In this document: in pieces, positions 8,331-56,635 of the stretch | Numbering within the stretch: the stretch's first letter is position 1 | Layout: each line of letters starts with the position of its first letter | NCBI GenBank assembly: GCA_024614665.1 | Contig: GCA_024614665.1_4861.1 | Strand: one strand, 5' to 3' | From: a phage | Length of the DNA stretch: 64,000 nucleotides | Made by a program: the position numbers and the translations under genes | The notes under the pieces: model-generated | Database searches by the model: none | What the model saw: the letters and a program-made list of their open reading frames with translations, nothing else | What the model was told of the DNA's origin: nothing

Positions 8331-10109
8331 TTAGCGGCCGATTTTAGCAATGTCTTCTTCGGTCGGTCTGATGTACGGGTCCAGTTTAGGATTCCGCATC
8401 ATTACCAAACTTGGGTTGGTCTTCATGTACGGGTTGAGGATGTTTGCCTTAAACGGTGCCGACTTAGGAATATAGTAGACGTTACCGCATTCCAGATGCG
8501 ACGCGGATGCGTGCTTAGTACGGTCGTTCAAGTTAACGGTCTTGCCTCCTTTCTTCGAACGCTTAGCATCGGTTTCGGTTTGACCGATGGCGTGCGTAGA
8601 CACTGCCAATACCATTGATTCTGTAGAGGCATTGAAGAAACTGATACCGCCGTTGCTCGTAATGGTGCGCATCACCAGATTGAGCACGATCTGTTTGTTC
8701 AGTGCGTCTCGAATAGACTTCGCCGCTGTCTCTGGAGTCCGATGTTCCAACTGCCCCAGCTTCCAACGTATTTTCGAGATCGTTGTGGTAAAGCCACGTT
8801 GACCCAACAGTAGGTAATCGGTTACCGTGAGACGTTTTCCGTACATAGACGGAATATCATCTTGCTTGGTAAGTCGAGTGCGTACCATCAGCTGCGTGGT
8901 ATACCAGAGGAAATCAAACATATCCAAATCATCAGGGATGGACGGATCGTTTGCCATCAGCTCACCACGGAAGGTGCTGTTGACATAGCGTTCACATTCC
9001 TGGAAGTGGCTGTCCATACTGCGACTCAGTTCGATATCCGAAGGCTTCAGTCCGCGAATACTGCGGCCCAACACTTCACGCCAAGACGCTGCAGAGTTGA
9101 GGTTTGCAATATCTTCGTCCATTGCCATTTCATTAATCTGTGTAAACAGCCCCGGTAGTGTTGGTGCACGACCGTTCTTACTGTTCTGTTTACCTGCGTA
9201 GTAGTGCGCTGCTTTGAAGAACGCAGCAGTCGCTACCAGCAACAGATGTTCGTTTTGATCCCAACGCCCTGCATCGGTGTTAGGCATATCTTCACGTTTA
9301 ACCAACAATACGTACTGGATGGTCTTCGCGAGTTGTGGCTCACCAGATTGAATCACCACATACTTCGTTAAGTCCACATCACGCACTTTAATCGCTGGCC
9401 AAATCGCCACATCAACGCCCGCATAACGCTTCACGGCTTGTTTAAAGCCATAACGCCCAAAGAGCCAATACATCAGTGGCTTCTCATCTGTGTCGTGTCC
9501 AATCTGTCCAGTGGAGACAAACAGATTCGATGTACCCGGCAAGAACAGCTGCTCAGGGCGACCATTCACCAGAATCTTCGTTGGTTTCTTACAGAACTTG
9601 ATAGACACCTTGCGAGTGAAGTCAAAGTTAATAAAGATACCGCCGTGCTCACGACATATACCAGGTTGATGGATTACAGGTGCTACGTGGTACGTTGTAC
9701 CATAGTAGTTCATTAAGCCGCCACGACGAATAAACGGCAGGCTCATTGGTCGTTGCACCGGGCGAGGATCACCTGGAACTCGGAACGAGGCCATTACCAT
9801 ATACGTGTCAGTGGATGAGATGTTAATAATTGACCGGCCACGATTATTTCGTGAATTGTTATCCGACTTCGATAACTTAAAGATAAAAGCTTCAAACGGC
9901 GACATTTGGCGACAACCTAATACCGTTAACCCTTCTGGTAATTTCGGGTTATCGATTTCATCATACGTCAACTCACGACGTAGAATGGTTGCCACACGAT
10001 CATGTATCCCATCTTTAGCTTGTGTGTACCCAACTCCTTCTGCAATTGCACGATTAAAAGGCACTATTTCGCCTGCCTCTTTAATCTTCCTAATCGCATC
10101 TTTAAACAC
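8331..10109 (-). CDS. hypothetical protein (592 aa)
   Basis: Long uninterrupted ORF on the dominant coding strand. Confidence 0.6.
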   Translation of the reverse strand: MFKDAIRKIKEAGEIVPFNRAIAEGVGYTQAKDGIHDRVATILRRELTYDEIDNPKLPEGLTVLGCRQMSPFEAFIFKLSKSDNNSRNNRGRSIINISSTDTYMVMASFRVPGDPRPVQRPMSLPFIRRGGLMNYYGTTYHVAPVIHQPGICREHGGIFINFDFTRKVSIKFCKKPTKILVNGRPEQLFLPGTSNLFVSTGQIGHDTDEKPLMYWLFGRYGFKQAVKRYAGVDVAIWPAIKVRDVDLTKYVVIQSGEPQLAKTIQYVLLVKREDMPNTDAGRWDQNEHLLLVATAAFFKAAHYYAGKQNSKNGRAPTLPGLFTQINEMAMDEDIANLNSAASWREVLGRSIRGLKPSDIELSRSMDSHFQECERYVNSTFRGELMANDPSIPDDLDMFDFLWYTTQLMVRTRLTKQDDIPSMYGKRLTVTDYLLLGQRGFTTTISKIRWKLGQLEHRTPETAAKSIRDALNKQIVLNLVMRTITSNGGISFFNASTESMVLAVSTHAIGQTETDAKRSKKGGKTVNLNDRTKHASASHLECGNVYYIPKSAPFKANILNPYMKTNPSLVMMRNPKLDPYIRPTEEDIAKIGR

Positions 10110-11125: not shown

Positions 11126-11164
11126 TGAGCATCCCAGTAATAATACCAAAAGAATTATTCACGT

Positions 11165-11179
11165 AGATAATATCTATCT
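11165..11179 (-). promoter_or_regulatory. promoter-like 15-bp element, type A (plus strand AGATAATATCTATCT)
   Basis: Exact 15-mer shared by 5 sites; about 40 nt upstream of ATG 11125. Confidence 0.5.
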
Positions 11180-11230
11180 CAGATTACTTTGGGCACGGGT
11201 TCATACCCAGTGCCCGTAACGTAAAAAACT

Positions 11231-11929
11231 TTAGGGTATTAGGCGTTGGGCTATTTCGCGGAGTTGGTCGCGGGTTAAATCAGCCAACTTCTGGTCGCCG
11301 AAGCCCAACTTCAGACCCAGCTCGTACCCAGCTTGCGGATACGTGTTCGTGTTTGCTACTGAGAGGAGTGCATCGGCTATCTTTACCATCGTTAACTCGA
11401 GAGACGCATACGGGGCGGGGATCGGCTGATTCACGATTTGGTAATTATAACGCACTGCGGCGTTATCGTAGTCAAACTCCATCCTTCTGCCGAGAACGTT
11501 AAACGACTCCGCAGAATAACTACCAAATGGGTGATTGGCTTTTTCCCACAAATCTTTCCGTTCAGTAAACCCAGTCGCGAAGTTCTGACGTATGGTGTCG
11601 AATATTTGCGTTGCCTGGCTAGGGTGTATATTTTTCAGCTCATTGTAGTCGTAGTCGGCGATGGAATATAGAGTGAACACAACACCGTTTATATTTAACT
11701 GCGGATAATCCATCCGCAGACTGTCATCACCTTGTAAATGAAGTTCCCACATCCTTACCCACTGCAATATCGCGCTTACCGCATCGTGACTGAGATAAAA
11801 ATTAGTAGGTTCTTCAGGATTTTCACGGAAGGGAACAGAGCATTCCGATACAAAAAAGCCGGCTGCCATAAATCCTCTGCCGTCGAACATAGGCGCAACT
11901 AATCTTGATTTTTCTAAATTGATTACCAT
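11231..11929 (-). CDS. hypothetical protein (232 aa)
   Basis: ORF track; ATG 11929; promoter-like element 41 nt upstream. Confidence 0.55.
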   Translation of the reverse strand: MVINLEKSRLVAPMFDGRGFMAAGFFVSECSVPFRENPEEPTNFYLSHDAVSAILQWVRMWELHLQGDDSLRMDYPQLNINGVVFTLYSIADYDYNELKNIHPSQATQIFDTIRQNFATGFTERKDLWEKANHPFGSYSAESFNVLGRRMEFDYDNAAVRYNYQIVNQPIPAPYASLELTMVKIADALLSVANTNTYPQAGYELGLKLGFGDQKLADLTRDQLREIAQRLIP

Positions 11930-11969
11930 TACTGTCTCCTTAAGTTAAAACCGAACGACTCTCTCCCTA

Positions 11970-11984
11970 AGATAATATCTATCT
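11970..11984 (-). promoter_or_regulatory. promoter-like 15-bp element, type A
   Basis: Exact copy AGATAATATCTATCT immediately downstream (minus sense) of a terminator and 41 nt upstream of ATG 11929. Confidence 0.5.
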
Positions 11985-11988
11985 ATAA

Positions 11989-12033
11989 ATTTTTAGAAAA
12001 AAAGAAAAAGCTTACTCCCCGAAGGGAGTAAGC
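11989..12033 (-). terminator. intrinsic terminator (minus strand)
   Basis: Stem cttactccc/gggagtaag, then plus-strand A-tract = U-tract after hairpin in minus transcript; follows stop of gene 12065..14365. Confidence 0.6.
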
Positions 12034-12064
12034 TAATCTTAGGCAACGTAATCCTTACGGATTA

Positions 12065-14365
12065 TTAGCCGCCAGCGCCTTCACCGCCAGTACCTGGCTG
12101 GGTAGCACCGCCGCCAACATCACCAGCATTACCACCGTCAGTACCGCCGGTGCCGTTGGAAGTAGTAGTGACGTTGAACGCCAGTTTCTCTTCCACGAAC
12201 TTGGTGATACCTTTAATCCAGATCAGACCAGTGATCGGGCAGTGGCAGATGTGCGCGTTACGAGGCTGTACTGCCAGCTCTTTGCTGGTAGCGCCGTTAC
12301 GCTGGATGTTGATGTTGGTTACCATGATCGGAGACCAGAAGTGGTTACCCCAGTTCAGAACACAGTAAGAACCATCATCAGCGGTTGGAACTTTCAGAAC
12401 CCACTGCAGGCGGCGAGTCCAGCTGCCGTCAGCTTCGTTCTTCACACGCCAGCGGTCATCGTTGGTGGTGATAACTTCGTACTCGTAGCGATCGCCCAGC
12501 AGACGCTGGTCGCCCTGAACCAGCAGCAGCATTGCAGCAGTCGGTTCGTCAGTTGCGATAACAACTTTCGGCAGTGCGTTCGGGTCCGCAGTCAGCAGGC
12601 GCAGAGCCGGCATGAAGCGAGAGTCCTGGATAGCACGAGTTACCTGGTCACCGATACGCTGTACCAGACCCTGACGGGCGTTGATGAGCGCATCTTTGGT
12701 ATCCAGAGACTGGATCACTTTGTCCACTTCGTAGTCGCTTTCGCTGTACCACGGAGCAACCCAGTGACGGCCCAGGCCGCGGATAGCAGGTTTGTCCCAC
12801 GGAGTGATCATGGACGCAGCTGCGTTCTTAACCGCTTCGGTGTAAGACAGAGTCTGAGTGATAGCCAGCATTTCGTTACGGATGTTAACCGCAGAAACGA
12901 GGTCGTCCAGACGTTCGGTGTCGTCGTATTCAACGCCAACCGGAGATTTGGTCATGATCGGAGAACCGTACTGCAGTTTGTAGTTCTCTTGTTCCCAAAT
13001 CGGGTCGAGCAGAAGGCCCTGGGTTCTCCGGTTCTCGTTGGTACGAGTACCGTCGAAGCGCCAGCCCAGCAGCTCCAGTTTCAGGTTGTCGATGATGACT
13101 TTGCCGGTGCCGCTTTCGATATCAACAGCAGTACCAGTTGCATCGTACAGACCTTCGATTTCCAGAGACGGTGCAGTCACGTCAACACGACCAGAGAACT
13201 GACCGTTGGTGAACAGAGACATGCTGATGTTCATGGAATAACGAATGGTGTAATCGTTCTGTGCCAGAGCGGCCAGTGCCGGGATTTCAGCACCTTTCCA
13301 GTCCAGAGACTTGGCGTTCAGGGAGAACACAGTGCGACGGAACTGCAGGACCAGCTCACGACCATCACCTTCAGGAGGACGCTGGAAGGTAGCGAACTGC
13401 ATGTCGCGTACGTTCAGTTTGATCAGCGCACCATCTTTCGCTTCTTCGCTCGGCTTACGCACAGACAGCAGCAGGCTACCCAGCGCTGCACCCGGTGCGA
13501 TTTCGTCGGTTTCATCGTAACCTTCCTGCACGATACCCGGATGGGCAGACAGCTGGAACAGGTTCAGACGACGCTCAGAGAAGCTCAGGTAGTTGGTCGG
13601 ATACGCCGGCACACGACCCAGCTGAACGTTTTCGTTTTCGATGATGTCTTCGGATACGAAGAACTTCGCGTTCTCACCGGTTTCCATCACGTAAGGTACG
13701 ATACGGATAGCATCGTCCTGCAGGACTTTGTGGTTAGACAGCGCGTTATGCAGCGGCTGACGGTTGTCTTCAACCACGTCTTTGGTCAGCAGGGCGTTCA
13801 GGATACCACGAGTTACAGTAGTAACTTTGGTACGAACGGTGATGCCGACGTCGTTGGTGTCCACAGTGATGGTCGGGAACAGGGTTTCTGCAAACTTGGA
13901 TTGAGTTTCCAGAGCACGCACGTTCAGCGTCCAGGTCAGACCCAGGTTTTTGTCCAGGTCTTTGTTGGTGTAGTATTCGGTTGCGACCAGCGGAGTTTTA
14001 CCGTAGTCAGCAGCCAGGGATGCTGCACCAGAAATAGCGATCGGCATATAGCTGGCGTATTCCGGCTTCGCGCTCTCAGCAGCAACACGGGTCATGAAGT
14101 CATCTTCGTGACCGGCAGCAGCCAGAATCATCGCAGAAGCAACCTGAGCAGCGTGGCTCATGGTTTTGCCAGGGTTTACAGCTTCGTAGTGCTGCTGAGC
14201 AGTGTCACGCAGGTTGGTGAAGCCGGCAGCATTTTTACGTACAGATTCGCCAACGGCTACGGTTTGCCATACGTCATTAGCGGAAGAGCCTGCCTTGGCA
14301 GCAGCGACCAGAGCATTGCCCTGCTGAACCAGCTGGTCCAGACTAGCGATACGGGTATCTTTCAT
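12065..14365 (-). CDS. candidate major virion structural protein (possibly major capsid protein), 766 aa
   Basis: Strongly biased codon usage typical of a very highly expressed gene, flanked by terminator; size in the range I recall for phiKZ-type major capsid proteins; no motif-level proof. Confidence 0.35.
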   Translation of the reverse strand: MKDTRIASLDQLVQQGNALVAAAKAGSSANDVWQTVAVGESVRKNAAGFTNLRDTAQQHYEAVNPGKTMSHAAQVASAMILAAAGHEDDFMTRVAAESAKPEYASYMPIAISGAASLAADYGKTPLVATEYYTNKDLDKNLGLTWTLNVRALETQSKFAETLFPTITVDTNDVGITVRTKVTTVTRGILNALLTKDVVEDNRQPLHNALSNHKVLQDDAIRIVPYVMETGENAKFFVSEDIIENENVQLGRVPAYPTNYLSFSERRLNLFQLSAHPGIVQEGYDETDEIAPGAALGSLLLSVRKPSEEAKDGALIKLNVRDMQFATFQRPPEGDGRELVLQFRRTVFSLNAKSLDWKGAEIPALAALAQNDYTIRYSMNISMSLFTNGQFSGRVDVTAPSLEIEGLYDATGTAVDIESGTGKVIIDNLKLELLGWRFDGTRTNENRRTQGLLLDPIWEQENYKLQYGSPIMTKSPVGVEYDDTERLDDLVSAVNIRNEMLAITQTLSYTEAVKNAAASMITPWDKPAIRGLGRHWVAPWYSESDYEVDKVIQSLDTKDALINARQGLVQRIGDQVTRAIQDSRFMPALRLLTADPNALPKVVIATDEPTAAMLLLVQGDQRLLGDRYEYEVITTNDDRWRVKNEADGSWTRRLQWVLKVPTADDGSYCVLNWGNHFWSPIMVTNINIQRNGATSKELAVQPRNAHICHCPITGLIWIKGITKFVEEKLAFNVTTTSNGTGGTDGGNAGDVGGGATQPGTGGEGAGG

Positions 14366-14377
14366 TTCAAGTTTACC

Positions 14378-14902
14378 TTATTTAGATAAATGACATGCGT
14401 ACAACTGCGTCAGCACTTCGTGCGCAGCAAACTGCGTCGACGTACTGAACGTATCATCCACGACACGAGTCTTGGGACGCATATATTTAAAAAGTTCTGC
14501 GCAGAACATCTTTTTCGCAGCGTGGTCTTCACTTAAAGAAAAACCCGGTCCGGATTTAGCTTCTGCAAAAGACGCCACAACAACATCGCCACGTTGTGAG
14601 AACACCCAACGTAAACGACCGTCGAATGATTCCCCATATAAATCAGCAAGGGTTTCATTCGTACCTTTCTCAACCAGGTTTAAGACCTGGTCATAATAAA
14701 GAGTCGGAAGTGCAGGTGGTGCCATAATCGATTTATAAATCGAAATAGGGTCACTCACTGGCAGTATGATGGAACTAAAGCCCGACGAGCAGTCATATAA
14801 CCAGTTAAAGAAGCTTGCTTGGAGTTCCTCCAACTTTTTAACGCCAGCCCCTTTATCTATGTTAGATTGAACTTCCCACGGTGGACTAAAACGAATTTGC
14901 AT
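14378..14902 (-). CDS. hypothetical protein (about 174 aa)
   Basis: Track ORF 14378..14956; in-frame ATG at 14902 avoids overlap with divergent plus gene; 12-nt gap to downstream gene suggests co-transcription. Confidence 0.5.
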   Translation of the reverse strand: MQIRFSPPWEVQSNIDKGAGVKKLEELQASFFNWLYDCSSGFSSIILPVSDPISIYKSIMAPPALPTLYYDQVLNLVEKGTNETLADLYGESFDGRLRWVFSQRGDVVVASFAEAKSGPGFSLSEDHAAKKMFCAELFKYMRPKTRVVDDTFSTSTQFAAHEVLTQLYACHLSK

Positions 14903-14916
14903 TTTAAGGATGCTCC

Positions 14917-16479
14917 ATGAATAGTAAAATGATGTTGATAACCGCCTTAGCCGCACTGTATACAGAATCTATGCTGACGGACCCTAGCAAGGATCATGAT
15001 GTCATAAGAAAAGTTCTGATGCAGATCAAGCTTCCGGAATATGCGGAAGATGGCGAAGAGCGCTTTGCACTCATCGAGATCAAGGACATTATCACATCTA
15101 TCATAGACGGCGGCATGGAATACGACCACGCGAGCGTTATGAAGCGCTTGAAGCTGGCCACCACTCAAGTACGTCCTCTATACGATACGATTACCAAATT
15201 CCTCGAAGACGATTTGCCCGAGGAAGAAGACAAACGTACCGAGCATCTTAATCGACAACTGTCTCAATATTATTTCCAATTACGTCAATGTTTACAGAGC
15301 GTCGAACTCAAAACAAAAATGGGTCGCGCGTTCGGAGCATTGAATGGAACTGAGACACGTGTTGATCTGAACACCGCAGTGCTCGAACTCAAAGAGGCGC
15401 TATCTACGTTCGGTGAACGCTCTCATAATAAGATTCCATCACTGGTCGGTGAGCTGGTTACAGATAATCGGGCTCCGTTTGTTAAAGTGTTCGACTCGAT
15501 TAACAAGAAAGCAGCAGGTAATGGTTTGCAGACGGGCTGGAAAGCCATTAACCAAATGCTCGGTTGTAACAAAGGGATTACCGAAGAACTGTGGCTAATG
15601 CCGGCGTTACCTTTTAACTGTAAGTCTTTGTTCAGTCTCTTGCTGAGCTTATCGATTCCTATCTTCAACACGCCTGAGAAAGTAATGGCGGATGTGAAGG
15701 GCACACTGCAACCAATTATTCTTGACTTGAGTTTAGAAAACGAACTCGACGTTAACTTAGCTTACGGCTATCAAGCTCTGTACGGTCATTTTGAAGGACA
15801 AGTTCCACAGATGACCATTTCACAGGATGCAACCGCTGAAGAGAAGTTAGCACACACAACAGCAATGTCTGATTACCTCTGTGGTAAGATTCGCGCAAAC
15901 GGTTGGGACTACGTTTTCCAAAAGCACACCAACTCCGATTTTAAAGTGCACTACATCAACGACCTTATTCTCGACTTACGTCGTCGCGGTTATCATGTTG
16001 TTGGCATTCGCGCAGACTACTTAGGCACAATCAGCAAAGCAGGACACGGCAACGGTATTGCCGGGAGTGATATCAAAGAAATTTATCGTATTGCTCGTAA
16101 CATTCAAGTGGTGCGCAACCGTGGGTTCTTAATTGCCCCACACCAGATTTCCCCAGAAGGTAAGCGCTTAAAAGCGTTAGACCCGGTAGGTTTCTGTAAG
16201 AACTTACCTGGTCGTGGTCTTTACGATAGTTGTTCGAGCCTTGATAACGAGGCCGATGGTGAAATGTATTTTAACAAGCGTGTGGTCAACGGCCATAGCT
16301 TCTTAGAAGTTCAACGCGGTAAGCACCGCACCATTATCGATACTAAAGAATCTTATCACTACACAGTGATACCTTTCCAGGATGTTGGCATCCTGCCTTG
16401 GGATTGTGATAAAGAAGAAACCGTAACAGCGTCGTCTATCAACTTCTTCACCGGTGGAATGGGTGATGATTTGTTCTAA
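14917..16479 (+). CDS. hypothetical protein (520 aa)
   Basis: Long ORF with AAGGA RBS; minus strand over the same span has only short ORFs. Confidence 0.6.
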   Translation: MNSKMMLITALAALYTESMLTDPSKDHDVIRKVLMQIKLPEYAEDGEERFALIEIKDIITSIIDGGMEYDHASVMKRLKLATTQVRPLYDTITKFLEDDLPEEEDKRTEHLNRQLSQYYFQLRQCLQSVELKTKMGRAFGALNGTETRVDLNTAVLELKEALSTFGERSHNKIPSLVGELVTDNRAPFVKVFDSINKKAAGNGLQTGWKAINQMLGCNKGITEELWLMPALPFNCKSLFSLLLSLSIPIFNTPEKVMADVKGTLQPIILDLSLENELDVNLAYGYQALYGHFEGQVPQMTISQDATAEEKLAHTTAMSDYLCGKIRANGWDYVFQKHTNSDFKVHYINDLILDLRRRGYHVVGIRADYLGTISKAGHGNGIAGSDIKEIYRIARNIQVVRNRGFLIAPHQISPEGKRLKALDPVGFCKNLPGRGLYDSCSSLDNEADGEMYFNKRVVNGHSFLEVQRGKHRTIIDTKESYHYTVIPFQDVGILPWDCDKEETVTASSINFFTGGMGDDLF

Positions 16480-16488
16480 CGAACACTG

Positions 16489-16506
16489 GGGAGCTTAGGC
16501 TCCCCT
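16489..16506 (+). terminator. hairpin after plus gene (weak terminator candidate)
   Basis: Stem ggggagc/gctcccc 10 nt after stop of 14917..16479; U-tract weak. Confidence 0.35.
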
Positions 16507-16536
16507 ACGGGCAGTTTATGCGTCCTGCCAAGATCA

Positions 16537-16599
16537 AAAAAAAAATACGACGAACTATTTATATGCATGGAATTACCCGAGTGTTCCAGCACTCGGGTA
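16537..16599 (-). terminator. hairpin plus distal U-tract after small gene (terminator candidate)
   Basis: Stem tacccgagtg/cactcgggta (16574-16599), then plus-strand A10 run (16537-16546). Confidence 0.35.
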
Positions 16600-19041: not shown

Positions 19042-19056
19042 AGGTAATATATATCT
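19042..19056 (-). promoter_or_regulatory. promoter-like 15-bp element, type B (plus strand AGGTAATATATATCT; within 26-bp exact repeat 19036-19061)
   Basis: 26-mer identical to 27539-27564; 13/15 match to type A on the coding strand; 58 nt upstream of ATG 18984. Confidence 0.5.
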
Positions 19057-26734: not shown

Positions 26735-27496
26735 TTACGCTGCTGGTTCTTCAGCGGTTTTCACTTCAACTGGTTTCATCAGCGAGTTCGCACAGTCGAA
26801 GATAGCATCCAGGAAACCACGGAACGGCTTCATGGCTTCACGCTGGGCGTTCTGACGTTCTTCTTCAATTGCTTCTTCTTGCGCCTGAATTTCTTCAGCA
26901 GTCAGCTCCGGGTGTTCCGTCATGCTTTCTGCCAGGGTCATCACTTTCGGCTGCGCATTCCGAATCGGAATACGGCGGATGACCTTGGTGATATTCCCGA
27001 GCTTCATGCCACCCAGCGCGGTTTCGAACAGCGTACCGAAATCTTGCAGTGGGTCTTCGCTGATTTCCAGTACCGCCGGAGTCGCAACCAGACCAAAGGC
27101 AATGACCAATTCAACAGCAGTGTCAGTGACGTGCACAGCGAACGGGGTGTCTTCCATCTGCAGGTAATTGTTACCATTATAGGTCACCGGAATGAATTTG
27201 ATTTCTTCCCCTTTCTTCAGGCGCAGTGTGTCGACTGCGGCTTTGTACTGAACTTCGTACAGTTCCGGTTTAACACCGTCAACGTTATCCAGTGTAAAGA
27301 GCAGGTCGCCAACCGCCATACGGCGCGGCAGTTTGCGTTTGTTGATTTCGCGCAGCCAGACTTGTAAGCCGGTGAATTGAATTGGGGACAGTATAATTTT
27401 AAAGCCGTTGGTTGCTTGCAGGATAGCACCGTCGTCTTCGCTACGTTCGATAGAGCCATTAGCCAGAGTAAGCAGATTGATAGTTTTCATTTTCAT
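26735..27496 (-). CDS. hypothetical protein (253 aa)
   Basis: ORF track; AAGGA RBS; promoter-like element type B about 49 nt upstream. Confidence 0.55.
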   Translation of the reverse strand: MKMKTINLLTLANGSIERSEDDGAILQATNGFKIILSPIQFTGLQVWLREINKRKLPRRMAVGDLLFTLDNVDGVKPELYEVQYKAAVDTLRLKKGEEIKFIPVTYNGNNYLQMEDTPFAVHVTDTAVELVIAFGLVATPAVLEISEDPLQDFGTLFETALGGMKLGNITKVIRRIPIRNAQPKVMTLAESMTEHPELTAEEIQAQEEAIEEERQNAQREAMKPFRGFLDAIFDCANSLMKPVEVKTAEEPAA

Positions 27497-27544: not shown

Positions 27545-27559
27545 AGGTAATATATATCT
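27545..27559 (-). promoter_or_regulatory. promoter-like 15-bp element, type B (within 26-bp exact repeat 27539-27564)
   Basis: Identical 26-mer to 19036-19061; sits between an upstream terminator and ATG 27496. Confidence 0.5.
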
Positions 27560-43192: not shown

Positions 43193-44491
43193 TTAGGTGA
43201 TGTGGAATTTAGGGATGTACTCTTTAACCACGGTTTCACGACCGTGCATCGCACCCATTGCAGTGGTCATAACGTTCGAGAAGCCGGATGAGATATCCGC
43301 AGCGATTGCCCGTGGCTCTTCTGCTTTGTGTGCAGAGGCGCACGCCGCACAACAGTCTACGTGACCTTGCTGACATAAGATGGGTCGGCGGAGTCGAACA
43401 ACTTTACCGAATTGCGTTTTCAAATACTCTTCGGTGAGTTGGGTAACTTTACCGTTAATCATCGCGTTCATGCCAACATAACGCTTGTAGTTATACTGGT
43501 TAATTACAAGTGCATGAGTCAGTTTTGTCCCGCAATCTCCAGGCACGATTTTGTGGTTCTGGAAGATCATCTGGATGATACGTACCTGCTCACCACCCTT
43601 AGCGGTTTCTGCACCACGCATGAAGGAACCTTCACGAGTGTCATTGAACTTCTCTACCAGGTACTTCATCCCGGTCTGATCAACTTCCATCAGACTCGTT
43701 GGGATTAAGGTAAAATCTGCACCTTCTTTAAAAGCGGTCTGAATACCATACATCAGCATCAGCTTACGGCGACGCATACGCGCTTTAGGCGAGCTGTAGA
43801 ACTCAACGGACTGGTCGCCACTCAACCACTCTTTATCAAGTTCGTCGAGAGCTTTTTCAATCATAACGATAACCGCAGGGTTATCCAGTTCGTCTTTGTG
43901 CTTCAACAGCAACGCATCACGTACCTTATACGCGTCAGGATGCGTTGTAAGGCTTCTAATTGTTCCTGTTGGGGCAATCCCACGACACAACGGAGCAAGC
44001 TCGTGTAGACCCCCTACAAAGCGTCCTATCATGTATGGCCGAATCGCGTCTTCGTTGTCTGGATCGGTGTCATCGTATTCCACACATCGTTCGTACATCT
44101 CCTTACGGTAGGCTAGCGGGTCACGGGACTCTGCCAGATACGGGAGACGGGTACCGAATGCGTAATAGATAGCAATCCAGTTAAAGACATAGCGACCCAC
44201 GGTAGTCGGAATGGGACCAGCTAGACCTGGGTACATCTCAGGACGCAATTCAAACTGCTCTTCCGGCACGAACAGCTCTTCATCTTTTTTGCACCCTTCA
44301 ATCGGCACCCATTTAATTTCTTCGTTTTCCCAGTAGTGGGGCAAGCCGTCAATGTAGTTCAGGTCGTATTGCTCAGGTGGCTCACCTTTTTCATTAAAGA
44401 TTGCCACGTTGAAAACCGCAATACGCCACACCAGTCTACGCCAAGCTTCTGCTTTACACGCAGCGACCAGATAATCAATCTTGTTCATCAT
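43193..44491 (-). CDS. hypothetical protein (432 aa) with C-terminal cysteine cluster
   Basis: ORF track; tandem ATGs with GGAGGTAG RBS; C-terminal CQQGHVDCCAACASAH. Confidence 0.55.
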   Translation of the reverse strand: MMNKIDYLVAACKAEAWRRLVWRIAVFNVAIFNEKGEPPEQYDLNYIDGLPHYWENEEIKWVPIEGCKKDEELFVPEEQFELRPEMYPGLAGPIPTTVGRYVFNWIAIYYAFGTRLPYLAESRDPLAYRKEMYERCVEYDDTDPDNEDAIRPYMIGRFVGGLHELAPLCRGIAPTGTIRSLTTHPDAYKVRDALLLKHKDELDNPAVIVMIEKALDELDKEWLSGDQSVEFYSSPKARMRRRKLMLMYGIQTAFKEGADFTLIPTSLMEVDQTGMKYLVEKFNDTREGSFMRGAETAKGGEQVRIIQMIFQNHKIVPGDCGTKLTHALVINQYNYKRYVGMNAMINGKVTQLTEEYLKTQFGKVVRLRRPILCQQGHVDCCAACASAHKAEEPRAIAADISSGFSNVMTTAMGAMHGRETVVKEYIPKFHIT

Positions 44492-50467: not shown

Positions 50468-50494
50468 CAAAAAAAGAGGGGCGCAAGGCCCCTC
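50468..50494 (-). terminator. intrinsic terminator / attenuator (minus strand)
   Basis: Plus-strand A-tract then stem gaggggc/gcccctc; follows stop of beta'-like gene and overlaps RBS region of helicase gene. Confidence 0.5.
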
Positions 50495-50497
50495 GGT

Positions 50498-52603
50498 TTA
50501 CAACTCAATTACCACAGCGGCTCCTAGGTCATCGTACAACGATGCCGGGATTTTGTACTCGGTATAAAAACCAACGCGATCGATATTCCCCTGCTGTCCT
50601 TCAAACAACAACATCGGAATTGCCGAGCGCAAACTAATGAGCGTGTTGTGATCGACAAACCGTTTCCCGGTGGCATTAGTAGAATCCTCACTGTCAAATC
50701 CTACTGCCGGGAACGGGTTGGTTGGTGACTCTACACGAGATATCGCCAACATAATCGCAATATGCGTCATCGGTATACCACTCAGCTTACGCTGGATATA
50801 CTTAAACGTGTCCATCAATGCATAAGTACACTGTTTCTCTGTAGCACCACCCATTTCAACCAACGTTACCGGTTTCACACGACCTTGTTTCTTGTTCAGC
50901 TTCACAGTCGAGGCTGTGTTGATGATTTCCACAATGTCTTCGTTCTTATCGGCAGCAATCGAACGGAGCTTGGTTTCTAAGCCGGCTACGAACTCTGCCA
51001 TCGATTCAGAACGGTTGGTGTAGACCAGGACCGGGTGTTTCGGGTTCCATCCTTTTAAGGGGATTTCTACCGTCTTCTTCTCGATACGAATGTTCGCTCG
51101 TTGTTTCAAGAAGTAGTGCAGGAACGGTTTAGAGAAGTTCCCACAAACACCCATTCGCACATCGATAGAATCCGCAGCGATTATCTGCCCATCTTCTAAA
51201 CGACGTTGGAAAGTTAAGTCGGTGATTTCTGGTAATGCCGTTTCATCAATTGCATCGAGATCTTCATGATACGCAATCTGGCTCAGCTCCGAATAAACTT
51301 TGTCGGTAACAACCAACTCGTATTCTGACCAATTCCCACGCTGTGGTTTTGGCAGCAAGCACAACCCTTTCAGAGAGTTATGTTTGTATTCGGTCATATA
51401 CTCACGCATACGTGGGGTGAGTACCAGGTTGAGCAGATAACGCAAGAAGTCAAGGTGCTTGGTAGAGAGAATTCCCTGTGTACCCTTTTCCGAGATGGAC
51501 GTGGATGCCAGGTGACCTGGTGACGTACCTTCAGAGAGGTTATAAATCAAATCCCCCATACAGGTCGCACAGATGGACTGATTCGCCATCTCTTTACAGG
51601 TCATGGCACTACGGAAGACCAGCGGTTTACCAACCAGGTCAGCGTATCCACCTTTCTCAAATCGCAACCACGGACCGTTATCGCCCTCTAAACGATAACG
51701 CATTCCCACCATCGCTTTATAGGCACGCTCATCCAGCTGCGTATCCTTAAACGTGTAGCGGTGTGCGTGTGTTGTACCGCAGTCGTCGTACGTGAAATAC
51801 ATCAGTACGTTTGCTGCCAGCTGCAGTTTACGTGAGGCGTATTCTGCTTCGGCAATCTTGTCAGTGTTGTACAAGTGGGAACGTGAAGTTGCACCGGATT
51901 CTTTCAAACGCGAAATAACCGAATGCATCCCGGTAAAGAAGCCTTCCCACACCTGATTGGTGTATACGCGCGAGTCAATTTCTGACGTTTTACCACGCAC
52001 GAAGGCTTGCAGTACCTGGTTCATCTTCACGGTACCGTCCAGTACCGACATTACGACTGGGTTATACCGCAGCGCAGGGTCTTTGAAGATTTTCTCGATA
52101 AGCTTATACGCTTCTTCAACCATATCCTGACCATCTTCATCGTAGCCAGTAGGATACTGCACTTCCCACTGACGGATGAGTTCGAAGTTCGGGTGGTCGT
52201 AGATCTCCATCATCGTATCAAAGTCGATTGTCGTACAATAGGACAGCAAGTTCTTCACTGTCATGTTGAACGCATCGGCGTAGACATGTTGACTCAGGAT
52301 ATAACGCGTTTCAGCAAGGTCGACACCTGCTTTACGGGCCAGTACCGCTGCTTCCGACATAAAGTCCAGATGCAGGTCATCTGTTGCTACCTGACCTGGA
52401 CGATACGCCATGGTCGATGGAGTGGGCACCTGCGGATACAGACGCGACACACCCCAATACGGCCAGCTGAGTTTGATGTGGCGACTAGACATTTCCAACG
52501 ACTTACCATCGTCGAAAGTCACGTAATAACGCCCGCGTAGTTTCCACACCTGATCAGAGTTAAGCATACGCAAATCACGTACGTGTACAGAACGACCCGC
52601 CAT
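50498..52603 (-). CDS. RNA polymerase beta'-like subunit fragment (C-terminal portion)
   Basis: Segment CATCMGDLIYNLSEGTSPGHLASTSISEKGTQGILSTKH resembles the bacterial beta' region CAHCYGRDL...AAQSIGEPGTQLTMRTFH; immediately follows the beta-like gene. Confidence 0.5.
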   Translation of the reverse strand: MAGRSVHVRDLRMLNSDQVWKLRGRYYVTFDDGKSLEMSSRHIKLSWPYWGVSRLYPQVPTPSTMAYRPGQVATDDLHLDFMSEAAVLARKAGVDLAETRYILSQHVYADAFNMTVKNLLSYCTTIDFDTMMEIYDHPNFELIRQWEVQYPTGYDEDGQDMVEEAYKLIEKIFKDPALRYNPVVMSVLDGTVKMNQVLQAFVRGKTSEIDSRVYTNQVWEGFFTGMHSVISRLKESGATSRSHLYNTDKIAEAEYASRKLQLAANVLMYFTYDDCGTTHAHRYTFKDTQLDERAYKAMVGMRYRLEGDNGPWLRFEKGGYADLVGKPLVFRSAMTCKEMANQSICATCMGDLIYNLSEGTSPGHLASTSISEKGTQGILSTKHLDFLRYLLNLVLTPRMREYMTEYKHNSLKGLCLLPKPQRGNWSEYELVVTDKVYSELSQIAYHEDLDAIDETALPEITDLTFQRRLEDGQIIAADSIDVRMGVCGNFSKPFLHYFLKQRANIRIEKKTVEIPLKGWNPKHPVLVYTNRSESMAEFVAGLETKLRSIAADKNEDIVEIINTASTVKLNKKQGRVKPVTLVEMGGATEKQCTYALMDTFKYIQRKLSGIPMTHIAIMLAISRVESPTNPFPAVGFDSEDSTNATGKRFVDHNTLISLRSAIPMLLFEGQQGNIDRVGFYTEYKIPASLYDDLGAAVVIEL

Positions 52604-54840
52604 TATTTATCCTCCCGAATTGGACGCACTAATTCAAAACCTTCACAGCGATGGATGTTGCGTATCATCCTGTCAATCTGCGAATCACCCATTGGTAGTT
52701 TCTTACGATCGACCAGCACCCCTGGATTGGTTGGTGTTGGCGAGTTATACAGCCCCGTTACGATCGCACGGTGTACCGCAGGGTTATTAGCGCGGTCATG
52801 AGTTTCGGGGAAGTTGCCCGGACCAAAGCCGTCGGTAAGACGCTGCTCGGAAGGACCACCCCACTTCAACCCTTTCAGGTTAATCGGATATGAACCACGT
52901 CCTTGGTTGGATGCATCAATACAACCCAAATAGTTCGTGTACATCGACGAGATACTGGAGAACTCACGACCGGTTTTATCCAGGCGCAGAGTCTCTACCA
53001 TGCCGACGTAGAACTGGTTCTTCGTCCACTCTTTCTCACCCTGATAGTTAGTAATCAGTAGCTTAGACTTGCGTGGTGCATACTCGCCTAGAGCACGGCA
53101 GATTTCTACCTGGGTAGCATTCAATTCGTGGGGAAGCCAGATACGAATCGTGAAGTCGTAAATCTCTTTAAAGAGTTCCAGACGTGACCCAGTATCCGGG
53201 TGACTGGCATTGAGATAGAATGTCCAGCGTGGGTTATAGCGATCGATATAGTCCATCAGGATTTCCCAGGCTTCATCAACCTGGTTGGCGGCAAGTAAAG
53301 GTTTCAACCGCATCTTCAACTGCTCGGATGCAGCAGACCAATACATGTGGAACAGCGCAGCATAAGTCGAACGACGAATTACGGCGTTCATGGAACGAAT
53401 GACATGCACACGTTCTCCGAACTCGTTAATCGGCATTTCTTCATCAGGCCGCACTGCACCCACGATACCTTTTGTACCTGAACGGTCGGTGATTTTCGAT
53501 GAGACGGTAACTGGGATTGGATAACGTACCACGATGCGTATCGTGTAACTACCGATTGGGTCCCAGAGACCACGCTGAACCGGCTGCGCCAGTTTGTTTA
53601 ACACGTTCTTATCAGCAGAACGGTTATACTCGCCTTTGCGCATGGCTTCATCGTATTCACGACCAATCTCTTCACGGAAGTCGTTATAGACTTCATACGT
53701 CTCAGAACAGAACGCCTTGTCAAGAATCTCAAACGCTTTCGGTGACCAGACAATGTTCTTGTCTTTGGACATCGCAAAATAGAACCGTACGATATCATTG
53801 TAAAAACGTTTCAAAGCGTTCGCGTAGTGATCTAACTCGCGTTTGTTCTCTTCGGTACATGCGATATTGTTAACACCACGATCGCATTTGGTTTCGTCCC
53901 GCCATACCTGAATATCAACGACACGTGAACCGGTACGTTCCATCTTTTCAAAGTCGCCAGCCAGTCGCGCTTTGTAATGCTCAGGGTCAGCATCAACATA
54001 CTCACAACGGTCGAAGTGCGGAGAGACATGTTGTGTTTCACCTACGTGCGAGTCAATGGCTGCCCATAGCTTATCGAAACGGCGCGCGGCAATAACCAAC
54101 CCATCATCACGAATTGCCTGTCCTTTATTGGGCAGGTACTGTGGTCGACGAACGCCATCAATACCCGTTGTCCCATACGTGTCAAGCAGGTACTCGTCGT
54201 CACGCAAGGTAAAGTCAATTGCACGTAAACCATAAGCGTGCATCGCTTTCGCTGCAGTTTCGGAGATGGTGTACGAGTCCTCGATAATGTCCGGGTGCGA
54301 CATTGTCACAGTGTGCAGATTGACCCCATCGACAAACTCACCGTCTTTCTGTGCCGGCAGTACGGTAAGCATTTCATCTTTTTCCAGGTGCTGCGTCTGC
54401 CCGCGCAGCAACGCCTGAAGTTTCCCAGTAGCCTCTTTCTTAGACGAGAAAATGTTATCGTGGTTGGTGTAATACTTAATATCGATTACATCAATCATCA
54501 CTTTGCGCTGGTTGGTTAAATCTGCGCGCGTGAAGAAGATAACATGCTGGAGCGGTTCGTGATCCCCTTCACGACCATAGCGTGCAAAAACAGCTGCACG
54601 AGTAACACCTTCTTTGGTTGTGTAACTGCACACAGTACCACTATCTTCCACGATATCGTTAAAACAATAATCGTGGTAGTTCACATCAGCGCCGGTAAAA
54701 TGGATAGTCGGGTCTGGATTGTCCAGTGGTACCGCCGACTTCATATGTCCACCCACCATTGAGGCACGTGCCCCAGATACGCCAGTGATATTCACCTCAC
54801 GGTCAGCAACGCTTGACATGAGTTCGACTGGTGTTTTCAT
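52603..54840 (-). CDS. RNA polymerase beta-like subunit fragment (C-terminal portion)
   Basis: ITDRSGTKGIVGAVRPDEEMPINEFGERVHVIRSMNAV matches the beta catalytic-region signature GRHGNKGV...EDMP...NPLGVPSRMN; upstream HPDIIEDSYTISE resembles NFEDSILVSE; downstream YVGMVETLRLDK resembles VGYMYMLKLNHLVDDK. Confidence 0.7.
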   Translation of the reverse strand: MKTPVELMSSVADREVNITGVSGARASMVGGHMKSAVPLDNPDPTIHFTGADVNYHDYCFNDIVEDSGTVCSYTTKEGVTRAAVFARYGREGDHEPLQHVIFFTRADLTNQRKVMIDVIDIKYYTNHDNIFSSKKEATGKLQALLRGQTQHLEKDEMLTVLPAQKDGEFVDGVNLHTVTMSHPDIIEDSYTISETAAKAMHAYGLRAIDFTLRDDEYLLDTYGTTGIDGVRRPQYLPNKGQAIRDDGLVIAARRFDKLWAAIDSHVGETQHVSPHFDRCEYVDADPEHYKARLAGDFEKMERTGSRVVDIQVWRDETKCDRGVNNIACTEENKRELDHYANALKRFYNDIVRFYFAMSKDKNIVWSPKAFEILDKAFCSETYEVYNDFREEIGREYDEAMRKGEYNRSADKNVLNKLAQPVQRGLWDPIGSYTIRIVVRYPIPVTVSSKITDRSGTKGIVGAVRPDEEMPINEFGERVHVIRSMNAVIRRSTYAALFHMYWSAASEQLKMRLKPLLAANQVDEAWEILMDYIDRYNPRWTFYLNASHPDTGSRLELFKEIYDFTIRIWLPHELNATQVEICRALGEYAPRKSKLLITNYQGEKEWTKNQFYVGMVETLRLDKTGREFSSISSMYTNYLGCIDASNQGRGSYPINLKGLKWGGPSEQRLTDGFGPGNFPETHDRANNPAVHRAIVTGLYNSPTPTNPGVLVDRKKLPMGDSQIDRMIRNIHRCEGFELVRPIREDK

Positions 54841-54870: not shown

Positions 54871-54885
54871 AGATAATATCTATCT
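54871..54885 (-). promoter_or_regulatory. promoter-like 15-bp element, type A
   Basis: Exact AGATAATATCTATCT 31 nt upstream of the beta-like gene ATG (54840); also 22 nt upstream of divergent plus gene 54907. Confidence 0.5.
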
Positions 54886-54906: not shown

Positions 54907-55230
54907 ATGCTAGATAAATTTGCTACCTTATCCGAAATAATACCTTCGCCTGATTCGACCAAGTATAAGGTGTTGCATGACTATACAGACTTCCTTCGCA
55001 AACACCCAGATACTACAGAAGAAGTTGTTGACCCAAAATATGCCTACCCAGAGGTACACAGTTTCTACGCGTACTGTCGTCTCAAACAGTACGATAATAG
55101 TATTATTTATCCGATGATGTTAATGAACGGAATTTCTACTCCGTTTGATTTCACGCCAGAGATAAGAACCTTATTGGTTCCTAGTGTCGGTGTGGTAAGT
55201 AACATCTTATCGACTATCGTAGAATCTTGA
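54907..55230 (+). CDS. hypothetical protein (107 aa)
   Basis: ORF track; AAGGAGAG RBS. Confidence 0.45.
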   Translation: MLDKFATLSEIIPSPDSTKYKVLHDYTDFLRKHPDTTEEVVDPKYAYPEVHSFYAYCRLKQYDNSIIYPMMLMNGISTPFDFTPEIRTLLVPSVGVVSNILSTIVES

Positions 55231-55267: not shown

Positions 55268-56635
55268 TTAACGTAAATTAGCTGATGAGAATGGTAGGTT
55301 GCCTAAACTGCTGCCACTTCCGCCACCTAAACCACCCAGACCACCTAACACGTCACTGCTCCCTCCTAAGAGGTTGGTGCTACCGCCGCCCAACTGCGTG
55401 CTACCCCCCAAGAGATTATTACTACTTCCCAGCAAACCAGAACCCAGGCCACTTTCTTTCGTCACCGCATTACCACGCAGCGCTTCACCGAGAGACAGTT
55501 CTTTAATTGTCCCTTTCGGTAAATGGCCGTTGTTCTCACGCAGCGCTTCCTGAATCTTCGGTGCTAACGCATTGAAGCTATTAGCCGAAGACGCCTGTTG
55601 CGCTTTCTTCGCACGGAAATAGTTTACCGGATCGTTGAGATCAAGATTTTCCTGCGGAGCTTGTTGAGAAGCTAAAGCAACGACCGGCTTTGTACCGGCA
55701 GGTGTACGCCCGATACGGAAATCCGTTGCGGTGGTGTCTGTTGCCTGATCGTTACGTGGGCCGGTATTATACGGCAGAGTTTGGATAACGTTATCATAAA
55801 CGCTCATGTTATCCAGTTGGCCAATCCATTCTTCTTCTAACGGACGCAGTGGAGTGTGGTCACGCAGACCACGAACCACTTGATTGTAGTTGGTCACGTA
55901 TTGTGCCCAACCGCGTGCCAAAGAACCGAAGTACGGACGCGGATCGTTAGAACCCGTAACCGAAGGATACCAACCAAACACTGCAGTTAGCAGGTTAAAG
56001 ATAATGACCTTATCCTGCTTACGCTGGAGCTTGGCACCGAAGAATGTTGCCGTACCATCCAGTGACTCTTCTTCAAACATGTGTTTGTAGTTCGCCACGC
56101 GGATATACTTGATACCTTCAATGGTCATATCGCTGGAGATGAAGATACTGGTGATCTTTGTCTTTTTATCTTCTTCCAGCAAACCGTAAACGTAGTTCTT
56201 CACCGCTTGCCAGCTCTGAACCAGTTTCTTATCCATCGTCGGATCTTTCAGGTCAGCACAAACCACATCGCTTAAAAACTTCTTGTACGCTGCCAGACGG
56301 ATATTTTTTCCTTCGGCTGCTGTTTCCAAAATCGCATCGATTAGCTCGAAGCTTTTCAGGAAGAGGTTCGCGTTGATGGCTTTCTTCAGGAAGCGAATCG
56401 TTCCAGATTCGCCAGCCAGTACCGATTCACACAGTGGGTGGAACGCATGACATTCACTACCTTCATCGTCTTCCAACCCACGCTTAATCATCGCTGCAGT
56501 TGGAAGCACCAAGCGGCGCTTCACTTTGTTGTAGGTGAACATTGCCGGATGACCATCATCGATAGTCAACATGTCACCTTCGAATCCGTATCCGAGAGAG
56601 GTCAGAAACGAACGGTAGAATTCAATCAATTTCAT
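55268..56635 (-). CDS. hypothetical protein (455 aa) with Gly/Leu/Ser-rich C-terminal tail
   Basis: ORF track; C-terminal about 60 aa of LGG/GGS repeats. Confidence 0.55.
   Translation of the reverse strand: MKLIEFYRSFLTSLGYGFEGDMLTIDDGHPAMFTYNKVKRRLVLPTAAMIKRGLEDDEGSECHAFHPLCESVLAGESGTIRFLKKAINANLFLKSFELIDAILETAAEGKNIRLAAYKKFLSDVVCADLKDPTMDKKLVQSWQAVKNYVYGLLEEDKKTKITSIFISSDMTIEGIKYIRVANYKHMFEEESLDGTATFFGAKLQRKQDKVIIFNLLTAVFGWYPSVTGSNDPRPYFGSLARGWAQYVTNYNQVVRGLRDHTPLRPLEEEWIGQLDNMSVYDNVIQTLPYNTGPRNDQATDTTATDFRIGRTPAGTKPVVALASQQAPQENLDLNDPVNYFRAKKAQQASSANSFNALAPKIQEALRENNGHLPKGTIKELSLGEALRGNAVTKESGLGSGLLGSSNNLLGGSTQLGGGSTNLLGGSSDVLGGLGGLGGGSGSSLGNLPFSSANLR

Follow-up and report, generated by a model that had tools for sequence, protein, structure and literature searches.

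Two adjacent genes of an SPN3US-like jumbo phage, very probably for the C-terminal beta and beta-prime halves of a split phiKZ-type RNA polymerase, behind a candidate early promoter

The window, by which we mean the whole 64,000-nucleotide stretch of phage DNA that was analysed, shares about 98% nucleotide identity with SPN3US and relatives, and belongs to an SPN3US-like (Seoulvirus) Salmonella jumbo phage. Two neighbouring open reading frames of 745 and 701 aa are present on the minus strand exactly where the initial annotation had placed them (Table 1). The overlap of the two genes by one base (TAATG) suggests a translationally coupled bicistronic unit, and the Shine-Dalgarno sequence of the second gene, GGAGGA, sits inside the 3' end of the first. 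Split, host-independent multisubunit RNA polymerases (RNAPs) are among the features that define nucleus-forming jumbo phages. The non-virion enzyme (nvRNAP) owes its name to subunits which do not occur in virions and are produced after infection. Of its five genes, four were found in the window, together with one gene of the virion-packaged polymerase (vRNAP); no alpha or omega subunit was found there.

Table 1. Coordinates of the features in the window, with predicted identities
Feature	Position	Strand	Counterpart or context
nvRNAP beta C-terminal half (beta-C), 745 aa	52603..54840	-	SPN3US gp34 / phiKZ gp71-73 orthologue
nvRNAP beta-prime C-terminal half (beta-prime-C), 701 aa; bridge helix, Zn site, trigger loop	50498..52603	-	SPN3US gp35 / phiKZ gp74 orthologue
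nvRNAP beta N-terminal half (beta-N), 592 aa	8331..10109	-	SPN3US gp77 / phiKZ gp123 orthologue
Sigma-like fifth nvRNAP subunit, 544 aa	58361..59995	-	SPN3US gp30 / phiKZ gp68 orthologue
vRNAP beta-prime middle fragment, 432 aa, part of the other, packaged polymerase	43193..44491	-	SPN3US gp42 / phiKZ gp80 orthologue
AT-rich 15-nt motif AGATAGATATTATCT, putative vRNAP early promoter	54871..54885	-	30 nt upstream of beta-C ATG
Exact motif copy	60030..60044	-	35 nt upstream of gp30-orthologue ATG
Exact motif copy	11165..11179	-	upstream of gp76-gp77 (beta-N) gene block
Intragenic motif copy, conserved	58614-58628		inside sigma-like subunit gene
Shine-Dalgarno AAGGAG, 9 nt 5' of beta-C start codon	54850..54855	-	sequence reading
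Terminator-like hairpin (7-bp stem, 6 GC), then T-run	50476..50494	-	short gap between beta-prime-C stop codon and helicase gene

The 745-aa protein matches phrog_3295 over its full length (E 4e-268) and is 99.7% identical in amino acids to SPN3US gp34. Its best match among solved structures (phmmer) is gp71-73 of the phiKZ nvRNAP (7ogp_C, E 2e-29). The catalytic-region signature of bacterial beta that the initial annotation had read in this protein was recovered: Pfam RNA_pol_Rpb2_6 (PF00562) passes its gathering score (24.3 vs 23.4 bits), and the active-site block SSKITDRSGTKG (residues 447-458) aligns with residues 1063-1074 of E. coli beta, where K1065, R1069 and K1073 are kept as K449, R453 and K457. 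The acidic pair E813/D814 of E. coli beta corresponds to E187/D188. Rpb2 domain 6, the active-site lysines and the ED pair indicate that the protein belongs to the beta/Rpb2 family. In Smith-Waterman alignments to E. coli beta, no unambiguous placement was obtained for the C-terminal beta motifs or for the NMQRQAVP-like motif; for the N-terminus, residues 699-728 were chosen and not the NMQRQAVP block, which we take to be the expected counterpart. At the C-terminus the alignment had no meaning, and we put forward no residue-level claims for those regions.

The 701-aa protein matches phrog_3015 over its full length (E 6e-241), is 99.9% identical to SPN3US gp35, and finds its best solved structure (phmmer) in gp74 of the phiKZ nvRNAP (7ogp_D, E 9e-39, residues 8-548). 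Its family profile aligns with residues 718-938 of E. coli beta-prime (28.9 bits, E 5e-11 in a two-sequence search), a stretch which spans the bridge helix, the Zn cysteines and the N-arm of the trigger loop, in accordance with the beta-prime-like trigger-loop segment noticed initially. The four Zn cysteines are C275, C336, C345 and C348, and the trigger-loop histidine H383 corresponds to H936 of E. coli beta-prime. The match to Pfam Rpb1_5 (PF04998) stays below threshold (17 vs 28.5 bits). The bridge helix and trigger loop, in the region of Rpb1 domain 5, point to membership of the beta-prime/Rpb1 family. The comparison with RpoB/RpoC and with phiKZ-type subunits that the initial annotation had suggested thus matched the two proteins to both.

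That annotation had also placed the N-terminal fragments outside the window. For beta this was wrong: the beta-N protein matches phrog_2943 (E 8e-188) and phiKZ gp123 (chain E of 7OGP, E 3e-20), gp123 is also its best match in phiKZ, and it is 100% identical to SPN3US gp77, which has been named the nvRNAP beta N-terminal fragment of that phage (PMC5105663). Outside the window there is only the beta-prime N fragment (SPN3US gp23), at a distance of about 0.5 kb from the right edge. SPN3US gp23, tested as a near-identical stand-in, matches 7ogp_A (E 5e-39) and carries an NGDFDGD Mg site at residue 457. None of the six reading frames of the window contains the Mg-binding aspartate triad, as NADFDGD or as NGDFDGD, which is to be expected of a motif that belongs to this fragment; its absence concerns the completeness of the window, not the membership of the enzyme. 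The complete set of beta N, beta C, beta-prime N, beta-prime C and a gp68-like subunit thus appears to be encoded, the one gene outside the window being judged on SPN3US gp23.

Two further RNAP genes of the window, for the sigma-like fifth subunit and for a vRNAP fragment, had been missed in the initial annotation. The gp30 orthologue matches phiKZ gp68 (blastp E 4e-12; family profile E 4e-19) and 7ogp_B (E 2e-6), its gene is syntenic with that of gp68, and gp30 is listed as an ORF068 homologue in Table S1 of Thomas et al. (2016). The gp42 orthologue matches phrog_2962 (E 4e-175) and phiKZ gp80 (blastp E 3e-40), the latter being annotated as a structural head protein; SPN3US gp42 was labelled beta-prime M by virion proteomics (PMC5105663). 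Its presence suggests that the genome holds a second, paralogous set of vRNAP genes. Pfam gave no matches for the beta-N fragment or the gp42 and gp30 orthologues, and their identities rest on the PHROG, PDB and phiKZ comparisons.

When the nvRNAP proteins were searched against phiKZ (tblastn, 1-250 kb), the best matches were only gp71/73, gp74, gp123 and gp68, and gp34 did not match the virion beta paralogues gp149 and gp178. Gene by gene, the block of the window is syntenic with phiKZ gp65-gp82. By synteny the gp31 orthologue may correspond to phiKZ gp69 (PicA/Imp1), with which it reached only E 0.008 in a 16-sequence search. These comparisons identify the beta C-half as the probable orthologue of phiKZ gp71-73, and the beta-prime C-half as that of gp74. 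The adjacent beta-C and beta-prime-C genes of a phiKZ-type split nvRNAP, as originally proposed, are thus what PHROGs, 7OGP, phiKZ, synteny and the literature all point to.

The promoter-like element reported ahead of the beta gene is present as AGATAGATATTATCT; the early role in vRNAP transcription that was attached to it is consistent with our findings and may be correct. The window holds five exact and two near copies, all seven on the gene-sense strand. At up to three mismatches there are nine matches against 0.97 expected, a number reached in none of 100 shuffles. Six of the seven copies stand 30-57 nt ahead of a start codon, some directly after terminator-like T-runs, and every nvRNAP gene of the window stands behind a motif of this type. 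Its core reads ATA[G/T]AT[A/G]TTATC, and its position is kept, with diverging flanks, in Seoulvirus, Erskinevirus, Machinavirus and Derbicusvirus, including Erwinia and Cronobacter relatives. In phiKZ and AR9, nvRNAP genes are early, and the vRNAP reads them from motifs that are rich in AT and about 10 nt long; early promoters of jumbo phages are highly conserved and centred near -10, and according to a review such motifs have been predicted for every RNAP-encoding jumbo phage. The recurrence of AGATAGATATTATCT, its confinement to the gene-sense strand, its spacing and its retention across genera agree with an early promoter, and by analogy it may be one read by the vRNAP. Transcription of the beta-C gene by the host RNAP was rejected, because sigma-70 sites are not enriched in the window (18 found, 18.5 expected) and that gene has no such site at a suitable position.

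The explanation that we hold with high confidence is that the two genes encode the beta and beta-prime C-halves of a split five-subunit nvRNAP of the phiKZ type, and stand behind a candidate early promoter. For assembly, timing and the polymerase that reads the motif, we draw on the work on phiKZ and AR9. The packaged RNAP, with gp42 as one of its pieces, would be injected along with the DNA and would recognise AGATAGATATTATCT as an early promoter, leading to transcription of the nvRNAP genes. Beta-C and beta-prime-C would then join beta-N, the sigma-like subunit and beta-prime-N in a five-subunit polymerase which, as in phiKZ, would have no alpha or omega subunit and would be insensitive to rifampicin. 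The new enzyme would go on to transcribe the middle and late genes.

Both polymerases of jumbo phages are assembled from fragments of beta and beta-prime, and the 701-aa protein does weakly match the vRNAP fragment family (phrog_2962, E 2e-6; phiKZ gp80, E 1e-3). That the pair belongs to the packaged enzyme is nevertheless highly improbable. In phiKZ (1-250 kb) the nvRNAP subunits lead the matches by over 30 orders of magnitude (gp74 at E 2e-39 vs gp80 for the 701-aa protein), the block is syntenic with the nvRNAP block, and the window has a separate orthologue (gp42) of the virion fragment gp80. Virion proteomics of SPN3US moreover counts gp42, gp218, gp240, gp241 and gp244 as parts of the vRNAP, and gp35 as part of the nvRNAP (PMC5105663). 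We consider it just as implausible that the genes derive from an RNAP and that their products have lost catalysis or taken on another role, such as that of a structural or regulatory protein. Such a fate would be in keeping with the very low identity to cellular beta and beta-prime, the degeneration of several cellular motifs near the beta C-terminus and the sub-threshold Pfam match of beta-prime. However, the equivalents of beta K1065/R1069/K1073 and E813/D814, the Zn cysteines of beta-prime and the trigger-loop histidine are all kept, the phiKZ orthologues, which are no less divergent, make up an active polymerase with a solved structure (7OGP), and the proteins are 55-92% identical across four genera.

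The core of the motif, GATA-T-TATC, is a near-palindrome, so that a protein-binding operator is possible in principle, and one copy lies within a coding region. A literature search found neither transcription-start data for this phage group nor an experimental mapping of the motif. The nvRNAP might read the motif as a promoter of a different temporal class, or a dimeric regulator might bind it, and in either case it would not be a vRNAP early promoter. We regard this as unlikely in view of the uniform gene-sense orientation, the spacing to start codons, the agreement with the published early promoters, the position held in four genera despite diverging flanks, and the placement ahead of all nvRNAP genes of the window, a class of genes that is early in phiKZ and AR9. 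The intragenic copy is followed by gp31 and gp32, syntenic with phiKZ gp69 and gp70. It is tempting to speculate that AGATAGATATTATCT is the vRNAP early promoter of the Seoulvirus group and that this copy gives gp31 and gp32 an early transcript of their own, a proposal for and against which we see about equal reason.

The two genes and their RNAP roles are already known. Gp34 and gp35 have been annotated since the SPN3US genome of 2011, the subunits received their roles in a study of 2016, which calls gp35 the beta-prime subunit of the nvRNAP (Thomas et al., 2016; PMC5105663), and the structure of the orthologous phiKZ enzyme has been solved (PDB 7OGP). In GenBank, SPN3US gp34 is called 'beta subunit 2'; explicit published statements of role were found for gp35, gp77 and gp30 only, and none for gp34. 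Split RNAPs of jumbo phages are of real interest for the mechanism and evolution of transcription, and this locus adds nothing new to them. The use of the analysis lies in corrections and context, with four nvRNAP genes and one vRNAP gene in the window, not two genes, and in the common 15-nt motif as a concrete promoter candidate for Seoulvirus-group phages.

The nearest known system is SPN3US itself (GenBank JN641803). Its gp34 and gp35 genes are 98.4% identical in nucleotides to the pair described here and do not differ from it in length, neighbours, one-base overlap or upstream motif, and the proteins differ by a few amino-acid substitutions only. SPN3US lacks about 607 nt found in the window, with a 232-aa open reading frame between the capsid gene and gp76. 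The phiKZ nvRNAP (gp55, gp68, gp71-73, gp74 and gp123; PDB 7OGP/7OGR) has the five-subunit set and the split points of beta and beta-prime in common with the predicted enzyme; the local gene order gp68-69-70-71/73-74-75 (helicase) matches, and the catalytic residues are kept. By contrast, amino-acid identity is only about 22-27%, the phiKZ beta-C gene is annotated as gp71 and gp73, on either side of an insert with gp72, where the window has an uninterrupted frame, a small divergent gene (gp33 orthologue) lies upstream in the window, unlike in phiKZ, and the candidate early-promoter motif is specific to the phage group.

The nvRNAP of Bacillus phage AR9 (PDB 7S00/7S01/7UM0) likewise has split beta and beta-prime subunits and a fifth subunit for promoter specificity. 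Its matches are weak but significant (7s00_C to the 745-aa protein, E 2e-8; 7s00_d/7s01_d to SPN3US gp23), and the solved-structure search found none for the 701-aa protein. AR9 is much more distant: it has uracil-containing DNA, lies outside Chimalliviridae, and its polymerase recognises a uracil-dependent promoter in the template strand. With bacterial RpoB the beta C-half shares the Rpb2_6 region, the GxKG lysines and the ED pair, and with RpoC the beta-prime C-half shares the bridge helix, the Zn2 site and the trigger loop. The divergence from the bacterial enzyme is extreme, with Pfam scores at or below threshold, and the specificity subunit of the phage has no sequence similarity to sigma. 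RpoB and RpoC are unsplit, whereas the phage subunits each come in two polypeptides.

The two adjacent ORFs of 745 and 701 amino acids described in the initial annotation were recovered with identical boundaries. They overlap by one base in the sequence TAATG, the stop of the former and the start of the latter, and the 3'-terminal part of the upstream gene contains a GGAGGA Shine-Dalgarno sequence, an arrangement suggestive of translational coupling. A megablast search with the locus matched 47 jumbo-phage records, 34 of them at 95% identity or more, including the Salmonella phages SPN3US (98.4%) and SaP7 (98.9%). The window corresponds to approximately 19.85-83.85 kb of SPN3US, reverse-complemented, with its right end falling within the gp24 orthologue (gp numbers refer to SPN3US unless phiKZ is named). 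The proteins share 99.7% and 99.9% identity with SPN3US gp34 (beta-C) and gp35 (beta-prime-C), respectively.

Both proteins matched PHROGs families over their full length: phrog_3295 for the 745-aa protein (E 4e-268) and phrog_3015 for the 701-aa protein (E 6e-241), each annotated as RNA polymerase beta subunit. The Pfam scores were low, with RNA_pol_Rpb2_6 at 24.3 bits on the 745-aa protein, barely over the gathering score of 23.4, and RNA_pol_Rpb1_5 at 17 bits on the 701-aa protein, under its gathering score of 28.5. Among solved structures, the 745-aa protein matched phiKZ gp71-73 (7ogp_C, E 2e-29), more weakly the beta-C subunit of the AR9 non-virion RNA polymerase (7s00_C, E 2e-8), and also bacterial beta; the 701-aa protein matched phiKZ gp74 over residues 8-548 (7ogp_D, E 9e-39). 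Small family profiles, built from the window phage and four relatives, were aligned to the E. coli subunits and covered beta 1060-1135 and beta-prime 718-938. The 745-aa protein retains the E. coli beta residues K1065, R1069 and K1073 as K449, R453 and K457, and the pair E813/D814 as E187/D188. The 701-aa protein contains the bridge-helix region, the zinc cysteines C275, C336, C345 and C348 (E. coli C814, C888, C895 and C898) and the trigger-loop arm GTQGILSTKH, in which H383 corresponds to E. coli H936. The family, structure and residue matches therefore uphold both original observations, a beta catalytic region in the first protein and a beta-prime-like trigger-loop segment in the second.

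Since these phages encode two multisubunit polymerases, the non-virion (nvRNAP) and the virion-packaged (vRNAP) enzyme, orthology to individual phiKZ subunits matters. The window proteins were used as tblastn queries against 250 kb of phiKZ. The sole matches of the 745-aa protein were gp73 (E 1e-20) and gp71 (E 2e-10); the best match of the 701-aa protein was gp74 (E 2e-39), with the vRNAP fragment gp80 a distant second (E 1e-3). Gene order around the nvRNAP block is conserved one for one: phiKZ gp65 (SbcD), gp66, gp67, gp68, gp69, gp70, gp71/73, gp74, gp75 (helicase) ... gp79, gp80, gp81 and gp82 (DNA polymerase) parallel SPN3US gp27, 28, 29, 30, 31, 32, (33), 34, 35, 36 ... 41, 42, 43 and 44, most positions being backed by pairwise similarity. 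The five chains of the solved phiKZ nvRNAP (7OGP) are gp55, gp68, gp71-73, gp74 and gp123. In SPN3US, gp35 has been identified as the nvRNAP beta-prime subunit and gp77 as the nvRNAP beta N-terminal fragment, and virion proteomics assigned gp42, gp218, gp240, gp241 and gp244 to the vRNAP (Thomas et al., 2016; PMC5105663). On these combined grounds the assignment of both proteins to the nvRNAP is solid, and the proposal of a split, phage-encoded polymerase of the phiKZ non-virion type is borne out.

Features of the window related to the polymerase genes and the promoter-like motif
Feature	Coordinates	Strand	Remarks
745-aa ORF (beta-C)	52603-54840	minus	gp34 orthologue
701-aa ORF (beta-prime-C)	50498-52603	minus	gp35 orthologue
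Hairpin and T-run	50476-50494		good; after beta-prime-C stop codon
nvRNAP beta N-half	8331-10109	minus	592 aa; 100% identity to SPN3US gp77
gp30 orthologue	58361-59995	minus	phiKZ gp68 counterpart by similarity and synteny
vRNAP beta-prime middle fragment	43193-44491	minus	gp42 orthologue; orthologous to phiKZ gp80
gp31 orthologue	56648-58348	minus	
gp32 orthologue	55268-56635	minus	
gp33 orthologue	54907-55230	plus	107 aa; phrog_3455
232-aa ORF	11231-11929	minus	phrog_15414, unknown function
gp55 orthologue	26735-27496		
Exact motif	54871-54885	minus	30 nt before beta-C ATG
Exact motif	60030-60044	minus	35 nt before gp30-orthologue ATG
Exact motif	58614-58628	minus	within gp30 orthologue, 266 nt before next gene
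Exact motif (two copies)	11970-11984; 11165-11179	minus	ahead of gp76-gp77 block
Variant motif (two copies)	19042-19056; 27545-27559	minus	
11-mer AAAAAAAGAAA	5894, 11997, 24798, 27582, 42633, 45378	plus-strand coordinates	
11-mer AAAAAAAGAAA	5955	minus	

The N-terminal fragments had been thought to lie outside the window. This is true of beta-prime, whose N-half (SPN3US gp23; 7ogp_A, E 5e-39; NGDFDGD at residue 457) is the sole nvRNAP piece missing from it, no NGDFDGD-type motif being found in any frame of the window; it is incorrect for beta, whose N-half (phrog_2943) is present and matches phiKZ gp123 (7ogp_E, E 3e-20). The initial annotation had also overlooked the gp42 orthologue, a vRNAP fragment, and the gp30 orthologue. 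The latter is equivalent to the sigma-like promoter-specificity subunit of phiKZ, gp68, to which it is related by synteny and by similarity (blastp E 4e-12; family profile E 4e-19; structure match 7ogp_B, E 2e-6). Elsewhere in the cluster, the gp32 orthologue matched phiKZ gp70 (E 6e-12), and the gp31 orthologue occupies the position of phiKZ gp69, the nuclear import factor PicA/Imp1, with marginal similarity (E 0.008 in a tiny database). Both carry long Gly/Leu/Ser-rich low-complexity tails (e.g. ...GGLDPLGGLDLGGGLGGIGGNGLGNGLID). The gp33 orthologue and the beta-C gene are transcribed away from each other, with 66 nt of intergenic sequence between them. Because Table S1 of PMC5105663 lists gp33 and a small virion protein of phiKZ/201phi2-1 as homologues, this is presumably a late structural gene embedded in the polymerase cluster.

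The promoter-like element noted ahead of the beta-like gene is a 15-nt AT-rich motif. A k-mer count of the window found five exact copies of AGATAGATATTATCT, all on the minus, gene-sense strand, and two near copies, AGATATATATTACCT. Allowing up to three mismatches gave 9 matches against 0.97 expected, a number reached in none of 100 shuffles; sigma-70-like promoters were not enriched in the window (18 versus 18.5 expected). From the positions of the exact copies, each nvRNAP gene in the window lies downstream of one. In the Erwinia phages pEa_SNUABM_29, Asesino and Caitlin and the Cronobacter phage CR5, where beta-C protein identity is as low as 55%, the core ATA(G/T)AT(A/G)TTATC is kept at an unchanged distance from the start codon in all four, with diverged flanks. 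Published jumbo-phage early promoters are AT-rich, highly conserved, about 10 nt long, located near -10 and read by the injected vRNAP, and nvRNAP genes belong to the early class in phiKZ and AR9. The motif agrees with this description, and we infer that it is a candidate vRNAP early promoter. A literature search found no transcription-start data for it in this phage. The core GATATTATC (e.g. 54873-54881) is a near-palindrome, GATA-T-TATC, yet has a single orientation in all copies; this might reflect the recognition mode of the polymerase or of a factor. At the site equivalent to the intragenic copy, the core is kept in three relatives (L005, L006 and L008), and this suggests that transcription of the gp31 and gp32 orthologues may start from a promoter inside the gp30 orthologue. 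One variant copy precedes a series of tiny ORFs, the gp66-68 orthologues, and the other precedes the gp55 orthologue; both probably belong to the same putative promoter class.

An 11-mer, AAAAAAAGAAA (gene strand TTTCTTTTTTT), occurs seven times in the window, directly upstream of a motif copy at 11997 and 27582. Hairpin-like sequence precedes the copy at 11997; 11-mer and motif together resemble the T-tract of a terminator with a promoter behind it. In the intergenic region 11126-12064, which separates the major capsid gene from the gp76 orthologue, the window carries about 607 nt more than SPN3US, and this extra DNA encodes a 232-aa ORF. Two exact motif copies, 805 nt apart here versus 198 nt in SPN3US, flank the 232-aa ORF, which had no Pfam match and looks like a variable accessory gene driven by a putative early promoter. 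SEGD1 seems to share this ORF, because it matches the insert region over its full length at 99.3% identity.

What the analysis shows is homology and orthology, the retention of catalytic residues, the layout of the operon and the conservation of the motif. If the phage behaves like phiKZ and AR9, the injected vRNAP would read the nvRNAP genes from the 15-nt motif, and the five nvRNAP proteins would assemble without alpha or omega, with promoter specificity provided by the gp68-like subunit; the enzyme would then transcribe middle and late genes inside the phage nucleus. The polymerase finding itself is not novel: the homologies gp23-ORF055, gp30-ORF068 and gp32-ORF070 appear in Table S1, and the subunit roles in the text and figures, of PMC5105663, and the structure of the phiKZ enzyme has been solved. 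What remains is of modest value, an explicit promoter candidate and a corrected inventory of the RNAP genes in the window. The phiKZ beta-C gene (13275-16595 in the phiKZ sequence, L003) is annotated in two pieces, gp71 and gp73, separated by about 1.2 kb with gp72, an insert that we take to be an intron with a homing endonuclease, whereas its orthologue in the window is a single uninterrupted ORF.
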